Virus genome (UHGV): UHGV-1362522
Source: a virus
Length of the DNA: 46,906 nt
Direction: 5' to 3' (one strand)
The notes beneath the pieces are model-generated. The model worked only from the letters and a program-made list of their open reading frames with translations, was not told the DNA's origin and made no database searches. The number at the start of each line of letters is the position of its first letter. Within the stretch, counting starts at the first letter, position 1. Position numbers and translations under genes: made by a program. This document shows positions 2,542-44,184 of this stretch, in pieces.

Positions 2542-2832
2542 TTATTTGTCGCCCACCGTTGACAGGCAGACTTCACGGGCGACAGCGGCCACTTCTTTCG
2601 GTGTCTTGTCTGTCATTTTGTATGCCCCATCTACGATAGCCTTGCTGAGTTGGTTAAATTCAGCGCTATACTGGCCTCCAGAAGAAACCATCAGCGCGAG
2701 CTGCTTTGATACGCCAGCATCACGGGCTTCTGCTGCCGCTTCACCGAGCTCACCAACTGCATTGCAAAACTCGCCAGCCGACGCACCAAATGAAGCCATT
2801 GCGAATACTGCTGCTGCGATTAATTTTTTCAT
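2542..2832 (-). CDS. small secreted protein (signal peptidase I-type signal peptide)
   Basis: N-terminus MKKLIAAAVFAMASFGASA then GE. SD AGGAGA 6 nt upstream. Leftward, between head gene and lysis cassette. Confidence 0.5.
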   Translation of the reverse strand: MKKLIAAAVFAMASFGASAGEFCNAVGELGEAAAEARDAGVSKQLALMVSSGGQYSAEFNQLSKAIVDGAYKMTDKTPKEVAAVAREVCLSTVGDK

Positions 2833-2874
2833 TTTTTACTCTCCTGTGTTTGTGTATCTACATCATCGCTTACG

Positions 2875-2907
2875 ATTCAATCTACGTCAAGACTATTGTG
2901 ATAAAAT
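2875..2907 (+). promoter_or_regulatory. promoter for the lysis cassette: ATCTACGTCA motif (2880-2889) plus extended -10 TGATAAAAT (2899-2907)
   Basis: TGn + TAAAAT lies 24 nt upstream of the endolysin SD GGAGGT. A second motif copy ATCTACATCA is at 2856-2865. Confidence 0.4.
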
Positions 2908-2930
2908 AATCTGCATCACCGGAGGTAAAA

Positions 2931-3365
2931 ATGAAACTATCGCAGCGTGGCATTGATTTAATTAAACAATTCGAGGGTTACAGCTCGAAGGCATATCCAG
3001 ACCCAGCCACTGGCGGAGCGCCGTGGACTATCGGTTACGGTACAACCAAAGGCGTTAAGCCAGGCATGGTTATCACCGCACAGCAAGCGGAAAAGATGCT
3101 GCGTGACGACGTAGCGAAATTTGAAAGCGGCGTCTCGTCACTCATCACCGCCCCAACAACTCAGGGCCAGTTTGATGCAATGGTGTCGCTGGCCTATAAC
3201 ATCGGCCTTGGTAACTTTGGCAAATCAACCCTGCTGAAAAAGCATAATGCCCGCTGCTATACCTGCGCTGCTGACCAGTTCCGGGTATGGAATCGCGCTA
3301 ATGGCAAAGTCATGAACGGACTGACCAAGCGCAGGGCGGCAGAACGTCAGGTCTACATGTCATGA
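2931..3365 (+). CDS. endolysin, GH24 lysozyme (T4/P22 lysozyme-like)
   Basis: LIKQFEGYSSKAYPDPATGGAPWTIGYGTT contains the E-D-T catalytic region of GH24. SD GGAGGT. 144 aa. Confidence 0.85.
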   Translation: MKLSQRGIDLIKQFEGYSSKAYPDPATGGAPWTIGYGTTKGVKPGMVITAQQAEKMLRDDVAKFESGVSSLITAPTTQGQFDAMVSLAYNIGLGNFGKSTLLKKHNARCYTCAADQFRVWNRANGKVMNGLTKRRAAERQVYMS

Positions 3366-34476: not shown

Positions 34477-35367
34477 ATGTTTTATTGGGAAGATATACGA
34501 CAAAGGATGATTGGCAACTGGGAGGCCGCGCTGCTATCAATAGTGAATATTGACAGGAAGGTTTTTAATGGAAAGCATCAGCCATGCCCTCATTGCATGG
34601 GTAAGGACAGGTTTAGGTGGGATAACAACTTCGAAACAAAAGGTGACGGCGGCGCCATCTGCAACCAGTGCGGAAACGGCAGCGGAATCACCTGGCTAAT
34701 GAAGCTGTCAGGAATGACGTTTCCAGAGTCAATGGAGGCACTGGCCGGATTTCTGAACATGCACCCACGCGAAAAACTTGAGGCGATTAGAAAGCAGTTG
34801 CCAAAAGTCAATGGTGCATCGGACTGCCTTGCTCCAGAAGAAGTGGCGGCCATCATGGAAAAAGCAGGCGGCGACACTATAACCGGTAAAACTGGTGAAC
34901 TGGTGGCGATACCACTCTATATGGCTGGAACCATGTCGCCGTGCAACGTGGCTTTTCTGGCAGACGATGAAACCGTGTCATTTCGCGCGGGTTTTAGCCA
35001 TGAATACACTCGTGGAAGACTTACGCGCGGCGCAGTGACACCGATTGGTGAAAAAACAGAGTGGACATACCTGGTTGCGGATTACCTCGATGCCTGGCGA
35101 GCACACCGGCTTACCGGTGCTCATGTCTGGTGTTGCTGGTCGCCGGAAAATATGTGGGAAGTTGTGCGCAATGTGAGCGATGAACAGCGAGCTAAACTTC
35201 GCTGCATCATTAATAATAATTTCGACGAGGTATGCGCCGCCGAGAATGCTGGCCTGCCGATACTGATTACTGATGATGGTAATGATATCCGTTACAGCGG
35301 CGCCATCAGAAAAAGGCTGTATAAACCAGAAGAGCTATTTGAAGCACTAAAAAACAAACCCTCCTGA
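34477..35367 (+). CDS. DNA primase (zinc-ribbon + TOPRIM-like)
   Basis: CPHCMGKDRF...CNQCG primase zinc ribbon. Acidic D-x-D region downstream. SD GGAG. Confidence 0.55.
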   Translation: MFYWEDIRQRMIGNWEAALLSIVNIDRKVFNGKHQPCPHCMGKDRFRWDNNFETKGDGGAICNQCGNGSGITWLMKLSGMTFPESMEALAGFLNMHPREKLEAIRKQLPKVNGASDCLAPEEVAAIMEKAGGDTITGKTGELVAIPLYMAGTMSPCNVAFLADDETVSFRAGFSHEYTRGRLTRGAVTPIGEKTEWTYLVADYLDAWRAHRLTGAHVWCCWSPENMWEVVRNVSDEQRAKLRCIINNNFDEVCAAENAGLPILITDDGNDIRYSGAIRKRLYKPEELFEALKNKPS

Positions 35368-35380
35368 TGGAGGGTTTTTG

Positions 35381-35614
35381 TTATTCTATGCTAATTAAAA
35401 CGTAACCAGGAAGATATAAGCTTACATCAGCTATATGCACAATTAATTTATCAACCCTCTCACCTGTGTAATCACCATCCCATTCATAAAGAGCAAGAAT
35501 GTCTCCAACCTTAAAATTACGGTCGTTATTCCTTAGTTCAGCCCTCTTTAAACCATCAACAACAGGCCAAAAGTGTTGAGGTAATATTTTAAGTTCATGT
35601 ACTTTGCTCATCAT
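35381..35614 (-). CDS. DUF3850 (ASCH/PUA-like) protein
   Basis: HELKILPQHF...ELRNNDRNFKVGDILALYEWD matches the DUF3850 signature. Confidence 0.5.
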   Translation of the reverse strand: MMSKVHELKILPQHFWPVVDGLKRAELRNNDRNFKVGDILALYEWDGDYTGERVDKLIVHIADVSLYLPGYVLISIE

Positions 35615-37164
35615 TTCAGTCTCGGGTTCAGGTAAACAGTGTTATTAAGGAATACGCAATATCCATCTTCTTCAAGAGACGGCAAAACGTTTGACTTGAG
35701 TCTGTCATAAATGTGAGGTATACCTTTGAATGGTCTAACGTTTTTTAGTGAATCATACAGCCATTTCACAGTTACATTTGTCTTTCCTTTTTGCGCAGCT
35801 GTGCGCAATTTTTCAGCAACAACATCAATTTCTGATTTCTCGCCAGCGTATCCATTTGACTCAACGGCGTCAGTAAATGTTTTTGTTAGTGCATCATAAA
35901 CGCTTATGGCGCGGCTTATATGCTCCTCACCAATAATTTTTGATCGACGACCGCCATCGCACCAGTTTTCAGCTGCATGGAATATTGCCGAAAGCCTGAT
36001 TATCTGTTTGTCAGCCTTACCCATGGCGCCACGAAGCAAAACGTGATCCCATTTACCACCTGGCAGGAAATTCTTTTCCCACTGGTTTCGCAAAAGTCCA
36101 ATCATACGCTGCGATTCTTTAGCGAGGGAGAAAACAACCTTCTCAGAAGCCACAAGGTTATGCACAAATCTGGCATATTCCGCCTTTAGTTCTTTAGGCA
36201 TTGGCTTACTTACCGGGCAATCATTTTCCACATCCCAATGCTCACGATAACCCAGCATTGACTGCTCACGAAGCATCAGGAATCGCTCTGACAATCCGTT
36301 ACCCCTGTCGCCAGCCGACAGAATGGCATCAATACTTTCATCCTGTGCAATGACGCTGATGTTACCAAGCACATAGCCAGATGAAACGCCACGACCAACG
36401 CGAGCTGAGCCAACAAACCCTCCATCCCAGCCTTTCAGGATGACCTCGGCGTTAGATTTCCCTCCATCCTTGCCATACGAAAGGCCAAGACAGGTATTTA
36501 AAACGCTTGCCTCATCACTTATCAGGTTGAAAAAACCACCCTCATGAATTGCCTGGTGCTGCACCGCTTCTGGCGTTGCATCAGTTAACGGGTATGTGAT
36601 GGTGTAAAGACTTTCCAGTTTTTCCTTCTCTTTTGCAATGTCATCTCCAATGATGGCCTTCGCGTTCTGATTCGTCGCTTCCTTGTAGGCCTTCATCAGG
36701 TCTTCAATGCGAATGTTTATCTTTACAATTTCCTTCTCCATCTTTTTTGACAGGTTGTCATACTCAATTTTTATCGGGTTCATGTGCATTGAGTTGATGG
36801 CTGTCTTGCCAGCTGATGGCGGCTGCGACGTCACCACATACAAGGAAACAGGCAATTCAGAACCGTAGTATTCAACGCTAAAATTTCGTGTCATGGCACT
36901 TGCTACGCAGCCAAGAAGATGCATGAATGACGTGCTAACTGGGAATTGCACAGCCCTCGCTGCTGCAACTGAGTAGCGCGTTATCAGGTCTTTCCTGTTG
37001 TCGCTGGTAAGCTCTATCTCCGAGTATGTTACATCCTTCTCCTGCCCTTCCTTAATTTCCGGCCACATGTTATGGCTTGGTGTCATGCCATGATGAATGG
37101 CGACGCGAGCCGCAGAAGTGTGCGCTTCTCTTGCCTGGTTGAAGATTTCCTGTGCTGTAATCAT
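35611..37164 (-). CDS. DUF3987-family P-loop NTPase (putative replicative helicase / primase partner)
   Basis: TSQPPSAGKT (Walker A-like), LISDEA (Walker B). 517 aa. Lies next to the origin-like region. Confidence 0.45.
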   Translation of the reverse strand: MITAQEIFNQAREAHTSAARVAIHHGMTPSHNMWPEIKEGQEKDVTYSEIELTSDNRKDLITRYSVAAARAVQFPVSTSFMHLLGCVASAMTRNFSVEYYGSELPVSLYVVTSQPPSAGKTAINSMHMNPIKIEYDNLSKKMEKEIVKINIRIEDLMKAYKEATNQNAKAIIGDDIAKEKEKLESLYTITYPLTDATPEAVQHQAIHEGGFFNLISDEASVLNTCLGLSYGKDGGKSNAEVILKGWDGGFVGSARVGRGVSSGYVLGNISVIAQDESIDAILSAGDRGNGLSERFLMLREQSMLGYREHWDVENDCPVSKPMPKELKAEYARFVHNLVASEKVVFSLAKESQRMIGLLRNQWEKNFLPGGKWDHVLLRGAMGKADKQIIRLSAIFHAAENWCDGGRRSKIIGEEHISRAISVYDALTKTFTDAVESNGYAGEKSEIDVVAEKLRTAAQKGKTNVTVKWLYDSLKNVRPFKGIPHIYDRLKSNVLPSLEEDGYCVFLNNTVYLNPRLK

Positions 37165-37437
37165 TTAAACCTCATACTCGGTTGCAAATGATTCGTGTGG
37201 GTTTTCTGATAGCCACTGCTTAGCTTTAAGAACGGCTGCGTTTGCCTCTTCTGCCGTATCGAACATTCCCAAATCATATCTTTTCTTCAAAACCATCACT
37301 CTGGCGCGGAACTTTTTTGATGCCTTGTGAAAATCAACACCATAGTATCCAGTCGTTGATTTTGGTGAAGCAACCCACCTTGCTCCACGTCCTTTATCAT
37401 TCATTTTTCGCTTTAATAAAATTCCATGGTTACTCAT
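37165..37437 (-). CDS. stand-alone AP2-domain DNA-binding protein (90 aa)
   Basis: YYGVDFHKASKKFRARV..LGMFDTAEEAN is an AP2/ERF fold signature. SD GAGGGGG 6 nt upstream of ATG 37437. The listed ORF opens at 37488. Confidence 0.5.
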   Translation of the reverse strand: MSNHGILLKRKMNDKGRGARWVASPKSTTGYYGVDFHKASKKFRARVMVLKKRYDLGMFDTAEEANAAVLKAKQWLSENPHESFATEYEV

Positions 37438-37500
37438 ATCAAACCCCCTCGTCTTTTGCTCCCTAAAACATACCACCAAACTCCCCAAAAATCAACACCA

Positions 37501-37835
37501 CTCAACGCAGCGTGTTAGGGGCATCTGGGGCAGCATTGGGGCACCCTATTTGCCCCAAGCTTTTTCTCTATAAGTATATGTAATATAATAATAATAGTAG
37601 TAGTTGGGTTAATTGGGTATATTATTATTCATATTATAGATTTTATTTTAACAATAAATTAACAAACTGGCGGCGTTTTTATATATACAAGGGGATGGGT
37701 ATCAAAATTGCCCCACTGCCCCAAAAATGTTAAATCCCTTTAGTGACAAGGCTTGCGTGTGGGGCAACACCATGCCCCAGCACCTTACCCACAGGGGTAA
37801 ATTTTACCCCAGGCGGATTTATTTTCACCATCATA
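37501..37835. repeat. origin-like region: GGGGCA/TGCCCCA iterons flanking a ~120-bp AT-rich stretch, plus a leftward promoter
   Basis: Eight or more copies of (T)GGGGCA in both orientations (37519-37545 at ~10-nt spacing, 37551, 37709-37722, 37760, 37773). 37561-37680 is ~85% AT. TTGATT-N17-TATGTT points left. Confidence 0.45.
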
Positions 37836-37864
37836 TTGACGTAGATTGAGCGCCATCGTATAGT
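37836..37864 (+). promoter_or_regulatory. sigma70-like promoter TTGACG-N17-TATAGT for the rightward early gene block
   Basis: TTGACGTAGATTGAGCGCCATCGTATAGT. Contains the complement of the ATCTACGTCA motif. Confidence 0.5.
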
Positions 37865-37894
37865 TACCACACCAACAACAAAGAGGTGATAAAA

Positions 37895-38080
37895 ATGACC
37901 AAAGCAATCTACACGCGCACGCAACTGGAACCAGAAATGGGCGCAGTGAAAGCGCAAAACTTTATGATGGCTCAGGCGATGCATGCATACAGCAACGGGA
38001 AACGAGTCTGTCGCGTTTTTAGCGGCGAAGGCAAGCAAAGACGCATCGAGCAGGTAATCGTGTCATCTGGTAAAAACTAA
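37895..38080 (+). CDS. hypothetical protein (61 aa)
   Basis: SD AAGAGGTGA 8 nt upstream of ATG 37895. Confidence 0.35.
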   Translation: MTKAIYTRTQLEPEMGAVKAQNFMMAQAMHAYSNGKRVCRVFSGEGKQRRIEQVIVSSGKN

Positions 38081-41069: not shown

Positions 41070-41148
41070 ATGCCTCATGCGGCATGGTGTAGAATCTGAT
41101 ACAATATCGAATAACGGAAAAATAGCGAAATATTGATAGGTTTTATCT

Positions 41149-41565
41149 ATGGCTAAAAAACTATTCAGTAGCGAAAATCAACCACCAAATAAGCGCGGAA
41201 AAGACAAACGAAAGCTGCTTATTGAGGCGCTGGAGCGAAAAGGGTTTACCGAGGAGACGCTTTACGACACTATCGTTGATATGGCTATTAATCAACGCGA
41301 CACTGCAATGATGAAAGAGCTTATCGTGCGATTTAGCCCCCTACCCAAGCCCGTAGCCCCTGTGTTTGAGGTCGACTTCCCTGATGATGGCACGCCGGTA
41401 GAGAAGATTGATGCAGTCATTCGCGGCATTGCATCCGGCATCATCCCAGCCGACATTGGCAAGATGTTTGCCGAAGTTATTAAGACCGGCCTTGACGTCG
41501 CGGAAGTAACAGAGCTTGCGGCGCGCCTTGAGAGGCTTGAGAAGCTACTGGAGCAGCAACAGTAA
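41149..41565 (+). CDS. terminase small subunit
   Basis: 138 aa. Basic N-terminus (KRGKDKRK), helical. Immediately upstream of terL. Extended -10 TGATACAAT upstream. Confidence 0.55.
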   Translation: MAKKLFSSENQPPNKRGKDKRKLLIEALERKGFTEETLYDTIVDMAINQRDTAMMKELIVRFSPLPKPVAPVFEVDFPDDGTPVEKIDAVIRGIASGIIPADIGKMFAEVIKTGLDVAEVTELAARLERLEKLLEQQQ

Positions 41566-41629: not shown

Positions 41630-41664
41630 TTCACTTCAATGATGCCCTGATGAGGAATCTATAT

Positions 41665-44184
41665 ATGGCACGCAAAAAACTCTCAGCACCAGCAATTGAA
41701 AAACTCGAAGAGATTATTGGCGATGGCGTGATTGATGCGCCTGAATCTGCGGTGTTCGGTGTTGTTAATACAGATAAGCAGATTGTTCGCAAACTAAAAA
41801 TGACGCAAAGCGGAGTTGATGACGTTAGCGACTCTGATATTGGCGTTGATCACCTGATGCCAGAAAAGCTGGAAAAGCTACTTTACCCCAAGCGTAATAA
41901 GATTGTGTTTGGCGGGCGCGGATGCTTAGCCATCGGCACGATGGTGAGGATGTTTGATGGTAGCCTAAAACGCGTAGAGGATATCGTTGTTGGCGATAAG
42001 GTTATGGGTCCAGACAGTAAACCACGAAATGTTTTAAACATCTGTCGGGGGTTTGATGACATGTATACGGTTCATCAAAAATATGCTGATGACTACACTG
42101 TCAACTCAAGTCACATACTGTCATTACGAAAGATTCCATCTGCTATCAGTGACGAGACAAAAACACCGGATGGTAAAAGAATTTATCGTTATTACCCGAA
42201 TGAACCTGAAATACTGAATATTGGTGTTTCAGAATATTTGTCGCGCGCAACTTCCAAAAAGTTCCGCCATGTCTTTAAAGGGTGGCGAACAGGATGGGAT
42301 TTTAATGACCAAAGCGTCCCAGTTGACCCGTACTTTCTTGGTTTATGGTTAGGTGATGGTTCATCTCGTGGTGTTGAAGTGTGCACGCCTGATCCAGAGA
42401 TAGTTGACTACATTCACAACGTGGCAAGCCAATACGGGATGCAGGTAAAGGTTCGCGACGATGATAGATGCCCTGTCTATGCGATAACTAATGGTCGAGC
42501 TGCTGGCATGGGAAAGAACACCAACCCGTTACTAACTAAAATGCAGCAGCTTGGGGTGATTAATAATAAACACATACCTGACTGCTATATCAAAAACAGC
42601 AGAGAGGTAAGACTTCAGATTCTGGCTGGGCTATTGGATACTGATTCGCATTATGACCAGAAAAAGAAAAGCTATTCTTTCACATCAATAAATAAAGAAA
42701 TGGCCTTCTCTTTGATGGATGTGGCAAGATCGCTTGGCTTCAAGTCAAGCATAATCAAAAAGACTGATGTCACCTTTGAATATAAAGGTGAGAAAAGAAT
42801 ATACGAAAAGGACGTATGGGAGGTGTTCGTTAGTGGTGACCTTCATACAATCCCATGCCGAGTAAAAAGGAAGATAGCAGAGAAAACCAAGTCAACCCGT
42901 GGAAAGATGACTGAGGTGTCATTGTCTTATGTCGGGCATGGTGAATACGCTGGGTTCACTATTGATGGCGATCATCTTTTCCTGCTTGCTGATGGCACGG
43001 TTACACACAACAGCGGAAAAACAAGGACAGTAACAACAATACTTACGGAGCGTGCACGCTTTAAGCCTGACAGGATAGCTTGTTTTCGTGAGATTCAGCA
43101 GTCTATTGAGGATAGTTCATATCAGGAGCTGAAAGACGAGATTGACAGGAAGGGCGAGACAAAAGAGTTTCGCGTCATCAACAACGAAATAACACACAAG
43201 GTAACGAAAGCAAAGTTCCGCTTTAAAGGCCTGTATCGCAACCAGACGACCGTAAAAGGCTTCGCTGGCATTACAGTAGCTTGGGTCGAGGAGGCGGAAA
43301 ACGTCAGCCAGACAAGCTGGGAAATCCTCACCCCAACAGTCCGCGCTGAAGGGTCAGAGATATGGGTGACTTTCAACCCAAATAAAGAGCATGACCCGAC
43401 GTGGAAAATATGGGTTGAGCCTTTTTATAATAAATTGCGCGAAAATGGCGGCATCTATGAGGATGATGAAAACCTGATTATCGAGTGTAATTACTCAGAC
43501 AATCCGTGGTTCTGGGATACTCCGCTCCCAAGCCAAATGCGGCGCATGAAAGAAACCGACTTCGACCGCTATCAATGGGTGTGGGGCGGTCGCTTTAACA
43601 AGCGTAATGATGAGCAGGTATTTGGCGGTAAGTGGCGCGTTGCTGATTTCGAGGTTAAGCCGGAATGGCATGGGCCTTACTTTGGCATCGACTTTGGATT
43701 CTCGCAGGACGCAACGGCGATGGTTGAGGTTTACATTGAGAAACTTCCTGATGACCGCCGCAACCTTTACGTCGCGCGCGAATACGGCCGTGTAGGCCTT
43801 GAGATTACCGACACACCTACAGCGATGGAGCAATCATTCCCACTCTCCAGGAAGGCAAGATGGTATGGGGACTGCTCTCGGCCAGAAACAATCAGTCACA
43901 TCAAACGCGCAGGATTTGATATCCATCCATGCAATAAGTGGCCCGGGAGCGTGGAGGAGGGTGTAACCTGGCTCAGGGGTTGCGACAGCATCATCATTCA
44001 TGACCGCTGCACACAGACTCAGGAAGAGTTCACTATGTACAGTTACAAGGTGGACAAGCTGACGGGTAACGTGCTCACAAATATTGTGGATGCGTGGAAC
44101 CACTTCATTGACGCAATCAGATATGCATGCAACGATCACATCGTACAGCGTGGCTCTGGATGGATTAGAAGGAGCAGGAGATAA
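41665..44184 (+). CDS. terL: terminase large subunit interrupted by an in-frame intein
   Basis: Exteins join to VFGGRG|SGKTRTV, a canonical Walker A. ATPase and RNaseH-like nuclease regions follow. SD AGGAA 8 nt upstream of ATG 41665. Confidence 0.85.
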   Translation: MARKKLSAPAIEKLEEIIGDGVIDAPESAVFGVVNTDKQIVRKLKMTQSGVDDVSDSDIGVDHLMPEKLEKLLYPKRNKIVFGGRGCLAIGTMVRMFDGSLKRVEDIVVGDKVMGPDSKPRNVLNICRGFDDMYTVHQKYADDYTVNSSHILSLRKIPSAISDETKTPDGKRIYRYYPNEPEILNIGVSEYLSRATSKKFRHVFKGWRTGWDFNDQSVPVDPYFLGLWLGDGSSRGVEVCTPDPEIVDYIHNVASQYGMQVKVRDDDRCPVYAITNGRAAGMGKNTNPLLTKMQQLGVINNKHIPDCYIKNSREVRLQILAGLLDTDSHYDQKKKSYSFTSINKEMAFSLMDVARSLGFKSSIIKKTDVTFEYKGEKRIYEKDVWEVFVSGDLHTIPCRVKRKIAEKTKSTRGKMTEVSLSYVGHGEYAGFTIDGDHLFLLADGTVTHNSGKTRTVTTILTERARFKPDRIACFREIQQSIEDSSYQELKDEIDRKGETKEFRVINNEITHKVTKAKFRFKGLYRNQTTVKGFAGITVAWVEEAENVSQTSWEILTPTVRAEGSEIWVTFNPNKEHDPTWKIWVEPFYNKLRENGGIYEDDENLIIECNYSDNPWFWDTPLPSQMRRMKETDFDRYQWVWGGRFNKRNDEQVFGGKWRVADFEVKPEWHGPYFGIDFGFSQDATAMVEVYIEKLPDDRRNLYVAREYGRVGLEITDTPTAMEQSFPLSRKARWYGDCSRPETISHIKRAGFDIHPCNKWPGSVEEGVTWLRGCDSIIIHDRCTQTQEEFTMYSYKVDKLTGNVLTNIVDAWNHFIDAIRYACNDHIVQRGSGWIRRSRR
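41923..43011 (+). mobile_element. intein (363 aa) with double-LAGLIDADG homing endonuclease, inserted in the TerL P-loop
   Basis: N-terminal CLAIGTMV (Hint block A, Cys1). LGLWLGDGSS and ILAGLLDTDSH are LAGLIDADG motifs. C-terminal TVTHN followed by Ser+1. Confidence 0.8.

Follow-up and report, generated by a model that had tools for sequence, protein, structure and literature searches.

The viral genome UHGV-1362522, analysed here over its whole length of 46,906 nucleotides (the window), is essentially the complete 46.9-kb genome of a virulent Klebsiella siphophage, and it holds in a divergent intergenic gap a set of short repeats around an AT-rich block that we describe as a candidate replication origin. 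To the left of the gap lie the genes for an AP2-like protein and a DUF3987 helicase; to the right, a block of genes opens with a DUF7540 gene and extends to the gene for the large terminase subunit (TerL). A first-pass annotation of this DNA had set the region between a leftward replication operon, comprising the AP2 protein, the DUF3987 protein and a primase, and the rightward block. The AP2-like and helicase genes do read leftward, but the primase gene is on the plus strand and outside the operon. The encoded primase is homologous to those of phages T1 and Ymer. Over the 1-kb stretch around the module of repeats and AT block, the window is 91% identical to Klebsiella phage KlebP_265 and 74-75% identical to Salmonella phage Vi II-E1, Shigella phage DS8, IME207 and Akira. 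The cumulative GC skew of the window reaches its minimum at 37-38 kb, which is weak support for an origin because gene orientation flips at the same place.

The repeats form a left and a right arm, each with a dyad, the left one (TGGGGCA-N7-TGCCCCA) being made of the last two copies of its arm. The first-pass annotation had reported three phased GGGGCA copies followed by TGCCCCA, and further TGCCCCA/GGGGCA copies beyond the AT block. We recovered the former within one base of the positions it had given (GGGGCA starts at 37518, 37527 and 37538, with spacings of 9 and 11 bp) and the latter at 37709, 37717 (previously 37716), 37760 and 37773, and we found degenerate copies that it had not listed, namely TGGGTTA, AGGGGAT, TTACCCA, AGGGGTA and TACCCCA. 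In total there are about 14 elements, exact and degenerate, that lie on both sides of the AT block and mostly point inward. Of the 11 TGGGGCA copies that the window contains, 7 fall in a span of 262 bp, as do 8 of its 18 GGGGCA/TGCCCC copies. Random placement of 18 sites, repeated 20,000 times, gave no cluster of more than five; the Poisson probability of the observed cluster is about 2e-15, or about 4e-13 once corrected for the number of windows. Such a repeat cluster, far above chance, is a general mark of iteron origins. In the GenBank record of Vi II-E1, the dyads are labelled merely as repeats.

A second general mark of iteron origins, adjacent AT-rich and easily melted DNA, is likewise present by computed stability. 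Positions 37562-37662 are the least stable 100-bp duplex of the window by nearest-neighbour energy (z score 5.45, against 2.95 for the runner-up), and the AT block scores z 5.0 when 130 bp are considered. The 120-bp block of about 85% A+T described earlier is thus real and the least stable in the window, although its A+T content is 79% over 37561-37680; the figure is 84% over 37562-37662. An exact search of IMG/VR for the AT core gave matches only in the same phage group. A cruciform or other single-strand structure in the core was rejected, as predicted folding was no better than in shuffled sequences (z -0.68) and the apparent arms are low-complexity ATAATA runs.

Table 1. Features of the candidate origin and of its surroundings, in coordinates of the window.
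Feature	Position	Strand	Remarks
Divergent intergenic gap, 458-bp	37438-37894	.	Holds the whole element; between ATG 37437 (-) of the AP2-like gene and ATG 37895 (+) of the DUF7540 gene
Left repeat arm	37517-37557	.	AGGGGCA 37517-23 (+), TGGGGCA 37526-32 (+), TGGGGCA 37537-43 (+), TGCCCCA 37551-57 (-)
AT-rich block, candidate DNA-unwinding element	37561-37690	.	About 130 bp; best-conserved part 37569-37666
Degenerate repeat-like pair in the centre of the AT block	37605-37620	+	TGGGTTA 37605-11, TGGGTAT 37614-20
AGGGGAT/TGGGTAT at the right edge of the AT block	37690-37702	+	AGGGGAT 37690-37696; AAGGGGAT kept in nearly all aligned versions
Right arm, inner pair	37709-37723	-	TGCCCCA 37709-15, TGCCCCA 37717-23; both point to the AT block
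Right dyad, TGGGGCA-N6-TGCCCCA	37760-37779	.	TGGGGCA 37760-37766, TGCCCCA 37773-37779
Outer right repeats	37785-37811	.	TTACCCA 37785-91 (-), AGGGGTA 37793-99 (+), TACCCCA 37805-11 (-)
Rightward promoter P_R, TTGACG-17-TATAGT	37836-37864	+	Promoter scan 10/12; 26 bp past the last repeat
Probable leftward promoter P_L, TTGATT-17-TATGTT	37497..37469	-	Read by eye, 8/12, under the scan threshold; about 20 bp past the first repeat
AP2-like gene, 90-aa	37165-37437	-	Pfam AP2 E 8.8e-5, under the curated cut-off
DUF3987 helicase gene	35611-37164	-	Pfam DUF3987 E 2e-35; candidate initiator
Predicted C-terminal winged helix of the helicase	35614-35853	-	Residues ~438-517; H-E-H-H-E-E pattern
Primase gene	34477-35367	+	Zinc ribbon of primase-helicase type; trans-acting partner
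DUF7540 gene	37895-38080	+	First gene of the rightward block
Large terminase (TerL) gene	41650-44184	+	Rightward block extends to TerL; 3.8 kb downstream

We aligned 31 distinct versions of the region, drawn from GenBank and IMG/VR. The first-pass annotation had made its interpretation depend on related phages having the repeat array; all 31 versions have it, with every repeat position kept and a consensus of TGGG[G/T]NA. GGG[G/T], the core of the repeat, never changes; the fifth base does so freely, even among phages whose helicases are identical. The central position of the AT block is TGGGTTA or TGGGGTA in 29 of the 31 versions, the right dyad is present in all 30 that are full-length, and TACCCC is invariant at the last outer right position; the right inner pair is a more variable position among relatives (T[G/A/T][C/A]CCC). 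The two dyads are separated, centre to centre, by 222-222.5 or 231-232 bp only, a difference of about one helical turn; these two values probably reflect a single indel event and are given little weight. Identity to the window over the AT core (37569-37666) is 82-99% in all relatives, compared to only 25-60% over the adjoining promoter/leader region.

The same layout is found in more distant phages. Pectobacterium phage Ymer encodes a helicase that is 51% identical to that of the window, as well as a homologous primase, SNF2 helicase and RecE. Its TerL and small terminase subunit (TerS) have no detectable similarity to the terminase subunits of the window, and its DNA gives no alignment to the window outside the motif. 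Ymer carries three direct copies and one inverted copy of GTGGGGAA, an AT-rich block, two copies of TTCCCCAC and then a GTGGGGAA-N5-TTCCCCAC dyad, in the order and orientation seen in the window. In a contig with a 64%-identical helicase, the TGGGG repeats, AT block and promoter are all retained, and Aeromonas phage Avpd1, with a 37%-identical helicase, has an AT-rich inverted repeat surrounded by GGGGAT and GGGGAA/TTCCCC elements. In each of these three, the repeats recur without the AT core sequence of the window. A second motif, GGCGCGGCTCTC-like, is common to the origin-like regions of Ymer (~165-176) and Avpd1 (868-886, 1033-1051 and 1123-1141); its counterpart in the window is just TGGCGGCG at 37668-37675, found only in the S13a-type right arm.

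Phage T1 shares homologous replication proteins with the window (helicase, primase, SNF2 helicase and RecE) but not the terminase. The syntenic divergent region of T1 (1-540, 48675-48836) contains the least stable block of that genome (203-303, z 5.9), which is flanked by TGTTAATC/GATTAACA repeats, and comparable large divergent regions head the helicase operon in phage tiwna (2348-3020) and in a Webervirus (2669-3175). Like the gap of the window, the divergent region of these T1-like Drexlerviridae heads the helicase operon and has a least stable centre with short repeats in both orientations; it differs from the window in the sequence of its repeats, which is TGTTAATC/GATTAAC in T1 and GATAACA in tiwna. 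Judged by sequence, T1, other T1-like phages and Avpd1 appear to carry looser versions of the layout, and the T1-like region is a parallel prediction rather than a characterised system. Given that Ymer and T1 share the layout and the replication genes with the window and have unrelated terminases, the layout travels with the replication module.

The repeat/AT/repeat module lies between back-to-back promoters and overlaps neither of them. The claim that promoters point in both directions held well for P_R, which was found by the promoter scan and whose TTGACGTAGA is invariant in all relatives and kept also in the contig with the 64%-identical helicase. For P_L it rests on our own 8/12 reading, and the scan lends support only in two other sequence classes: it found TTGTGA-17-TATGAT in S13a and TTTACG-17-TATCAT in ZX4 at the equivalent place on the minus strand. 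DS8-type sequences have TTGCAA-17-TAGTAT at the place of P_L.

Other functions for the gap were considered and rejected. A permissive Rfam search of 37300-38000 gave no match to a non-coding RNA, and four suitably spaced G-runs on one strand, as a G-quadruplex would need, are absent. A terminator scan flags the left dyad, plus inward-facing dyads in some relatives; as intrinsic terminators, however, the dyads lack the T-run in S13e- and MK54-type sequences and in the right dyad of the window, and no upstream gene reads into them. A cos site was discounted as there are no consistent ends and a close relative is reported as permuted; the literature searched on Roufvirus and cohesive ends held nothing of relevance.

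Of the proteins encoded next to the module, the DUF3987 helicase is always present in phages with the repeat layout. Kazlauskas and colleagues predicted DUF3987 proteins to be replicative helicases of mobile elements (PMC5862659). A helicase of this kind is encoded in roughly 1,100 phage genomes. Searching the PDB by sequence with the helicase gave no match at E values up to 1. An AlphaFold (AF2) model built from 44 homologues reached a predicted local distance difference test (pLDDT) score of 90.2, and its best fold matches in the PDB, obtained with Foldseek, were MCM AAA+ chains (E 1e-4, probability 1.0). The C-terminal 80 residues, when modelled alone (pLDDT 75.6), match IclR-type, MCM4 (template modelling score 0.59), ORC, forkhead and other winged-helix domains. 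These models are consistent with the helicase being an MCM-like AAA+ ATPase with a C-terminal winged helix.

We also considered the AP2-like protein as the core repeat-binding factor and rejected it, as its gene is missing from five relatives that keep the repeat layout: VLCpiS13a, MK54, the contig with the 64%-identical helicase, Ymer and Avpd1. In the first three of these, unrelated small genes occupy the AP2 slot, which makes the AP2-like protein an unlikely binder. In PHROG, it matches HNH endonucleases over their AP2 parts. The AP2-like gene sits in a variable slot and probably lies outside the core element. This slot, just upstream of the helicase, is taken by AP2 type 1, by AP2 type 2 (65% identical) or by a small open reading frame (ORF) of at least three unrelated kinds. 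For the type 2 gene, the pIS4-A and BUCT610 records give the wrong frame, and that of Vi II-E1 treats its copy as a pseudogene.

Taken together, the enriched and conserved repeats, the unstable AT block, a layout linked to the replication module rather than the terminase, and the modelled fold of the helicase suggest that the module at 37517-37811 is the bidirectional replication origin of this phage and is bound by the helicase. From these comparisons of sequence, we put the probability of this interpretation at roughly two in three. An iteron origin with an unwinding element, as the first-pass annotation had proposed, remains the best-supported explanation, and it is strengthened because the repeats and AT block are conserved in relatives and recur in Ymer and T1-like phages; the layout is nonetheless not of the classic plasmid or lambda type that had been supposed.

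In the mechanism that we propose, the C-terminal winged helix of the MCM-like DUF3987 helicase, rather than another protein shared by these phages, would bind the approximately 14 copies of the 7-bp TGGG[G/T]NA that flank the ~130-bp AT-rich block and mostly face inward. Helicase rings would assemble on both arms, the dyads of which are ~21-22 helical turns apart, and would open the AT block, where the duplex of this genome is weakest, self-loading without a separate loader. Replication would start at the module, with the phage primase and a host polymerase beginning synthesis; no phage polymerase was reported for KlebP_265 (PMC11769527). Outward firing of the two flanking promoters may aid opening through negative supercoils in the untranscribed module.

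The closest described system appears to be the origin of the pathogenicity islands of Staphylococcus aureus (SaPIs). In SaPI origins, an AT-rich centre is flanked on either side by iterons of 5-6 bp, 6-12 in number and set in opposite orientations; the winged helix of the MCM-like Rep protein binds these iterons, and Rep melts the DNA and self-loads without a loader (PMC9371898). The module similarly has two-sided short iterons, here a 7-bp motif, 6 of its bases specified, in about 14 copies. As in SaPI origins, there are at least two iterons per side and they run in opposite directions, with three plus copies and one minus copy on the left and mostly minus copies together with a dyad on the right. 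The predicted model of the candidate helicase agrees with an MCM-like AAA+ initiator with a C-terminal winged helix, albeit with weak E values for the winged helix, and a separate primase is encoded nearby in both systems. In contrast to SaPI origins, which are found immediately downstream of rep, the module is upstream of the helicase operon, past the AP2-like gene and between divergent promoters. Sequence homology of the candidate initiator to the Rep family is lacking, since Pfam gives DUF3987 only, whereas the SaPI Rep family is DUF927, another Pfam family. SaPIs are furthermore satellites in Staphylococcus aureus, whereas the host of the window is Gram-negative and the carrier is a virulent siphophage rather than a satellite. 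The resemblance is thus best taken as an analogy, with the module standing outside the SaPI family in the strict sense.

The iterons of lambda and of plasmids such as pPS10, RK2, F and R6K are 17-22 bp long, direct, and located on one side of the AT region. The lambda origin lies inside the O gene and host DnaB is recruited through a loader, while the plasmids need DnaA boxes. These origins share with the module repeated initiator sites by an AT-rich region, a position near replication genes, and an AT part that is more conserved than the repeats. Unlike them, the module has 7-bp two-sided repeats, no DnaA boxes that we could find, and a phage-encoded helicase.

Several observations weigh against the module being a helicase-bound origin, in addition to two that are given below with the packaging alternative. 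The Foldseek match of the helicase model to SaPI5 PriRep (7ola_B) is weak (E 0.065) and far down the list, and the winged-helix matches are weak as well, with E values of at least 0.04, as is usual for a domain so small. Winged-helix residues do differ along with the repeats, being G-[I/A/M]-P in phages with GGGG repeats and G-Q-x in T1-like phages, but this link was rejected as confounded by phylogeny. At the left dyad, the fifth bases of the two half-sites pair as C/G in 13 versions, A/T in 11, C/T in seven and A/G in none; this symmetry fails at the right dyad, and half-site covariation was dropped as evidence since the right dyad shows none. The cluster of DnaA boxes with IHF and GATC sites that characterises oriC-like, DnaA-dependent origins is absent: between 37300 and 38000 there are only two one-mismatch matches to the DnaA box, one of them a non-conserved repeat copy, and there is no exact IHF consensus and no GATC. 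Finally, the AT core is conserved far beyond the needs of a simple unwinding element, which an origin does not fully explain. Two promoter-like sites are located within the core at 37585-37651 on the minus strand (TTAACC-16-TATTAT and TTAAAA-16-AATAAT, 9/12 each) and occur in every relative scanned; given these hexamers, the conservation of the core may be partly transcriptional.

If the module served transcriptional control only, the dyads and repeats would be operators bound by a phage regulator (the helicase, the AP2-like protein or the DUF7540 product), which would loop the DNA over ~222 bp and thereby govern the divergent early promoters, and the AT core would contain promoters or UP elements. 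The invariance of the core would be explained by its promoter-like hexamers, which all relatives keep. Two dyad-symmetric sites whose spacing varies by no more than about one helical turn also agree with this explanation, as do the DNA-binding-type small genes that come first in each operon. Iteron plasmids, moreover, use inverted repeats also for autoregulation of Rep. We nevertheless consider control of transcription alone unlikely. The repeats are 20-26 bp or more upstream of the -35 hexamers and overlap neither P_L nor P_R, and some 14 sites over 300 bp exceed by far the needs of a divergent promoter pair. The AP2-like gene is replaceable, and the layout persists in Ymer next to other small genes. 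Operators would also leave unexplained that, in the window and in T1 alike, no DNA of the genome is less stable than the centre.

A packaging (pac) site, in which the small terminase subunit would bind the repeat arms and the first cut would fall in the AT block, is considerably less probable still. At the pac site of P1, hexamer clusters flank a central cleavage region of ~90 bp, and the hexamers carry GATC and are under Dam methylation control. The module resembles it in having short-repeat clusters that flank a centre; unlike it, the module contains no GATC and its layout follows the replication genes across unrelated terminases. The location of TerL, 3.8 kb downstream in the rightward operon, would suit a pac site. 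So would the records or contigs of at least six relatives that start or end in the AT block, at points scattered over the equivalents of 37585-37661, and the placement of pac in the corresponding untranslated region (PMC7718038), where the T1 record starts, by two T1-like genome papers (TLS and SU57) that found no origin; the latter two are the further points that count against an origin. The records broken in the AT core are those of ZCKP8, ZCKp20p, ZC2, KpV2811, Akira and IMGVR 3300045988_062303, and the Ymer record breaks in its own AT block. Such ends come either from assemblies that failed in low-complexity AT DNA or from physical ends that are not precise. The scatter of the break points fits assembly failure, as does KpV2811, a KlebP_265-like phage whose record lacks ~35 bp between its ends, and other records of the group are cut elsewhere. 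For KlebP_265, 91% identical to the window in this region, PhageTerm analysis gave no termini (PMC11769527). Ymer has the same motif and arrangement and T1 an analogous layout, yet their terminase subunits are not detectably related to those of the window while the replication proteins are shared; the site does not co-vary with the terminase.

Least probable of all, and in our view barely credible, is that the AT core is a homology patch for the exchange of genome arms with the repeats being incidental: the arms are indeed of KlebP_265 type on the left and VLCpiS13a type on the right with a switch at the core, but mosaic junctions are to be expected wherever a cis element is conserved, and an exchange patch leaves unexplained the enrichment, orientation and positional conservation of repeats that recur in Ymer, Avpd1 and the contig with the 64%-identical helicase, none of which has the AT core sequence of the window. 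Within the intergenic region 37438-37894, which forms this junction, the switch takes place at the AT core common to both types. KlebP_265 is 96-99% identical to the left arm and VLCpiS13a 30-76%; for the right arm, the figures are 93-98% with VLCpiS13a and 52-74% with KlebP_265.

Some observations were made on the terminase genes themselves. TerL is 844 aa long and appears to carry an intein: other terminases match residues ~6-85 and 455-844, and residues ~85-455 match a protein of Jersey-like Salmonella phages named 'intein-containing DNA helicase'. Phage records that cover at least 80% of the 844-aa protein number only 11. Directly upstream of TerL, at the expected place of the small terminase subunit, is a 138-aa ORF (41149-41565, plus strand) that matches only a PHROG of unknown function; the small subunit was not identified in the KlebP_265 paper either (PMC11769527). 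The DNA at 41090-41190, just upstream of this ORF, is among the least stable of the genome.

We found no published origin assignment for this phage group. Tentatively, the module and the corresponding regions of Ymer, Avpd1 and the T1-like Drexlerviridae may form one conserved origin class, used by virulent siphophages with a DUF3987 MCM-like helicase. It is possible that in this class the helicase is its own initiator, with a winged helix that would read 7-8-bp repeats in phased arms around the weakest duplex and rings that would load themselves. The element is of a familiar kind, and the gain is in annotation and testability rather than in concept. With a 300-bp candidate and a named candidate binder, the question becomes directly testable, and the phages concerned, siphophages of Klebsiella, Salmonella and Escherichia together with T1-like relatives, are often met as therapy candidates and as laboratory contaminants. 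If the proposal is true, the class would be the bacterial-virus analogue of SaPI Rep origins and of the double-hexamer origins of eukaryotic viruses, and it would locate the origin that the T1-like genome papers reported as not found. The widespread DUF3987 family would in addition gain a function, and origin plasmids that are amplified on infection are one example of the engineering handle that would follow.

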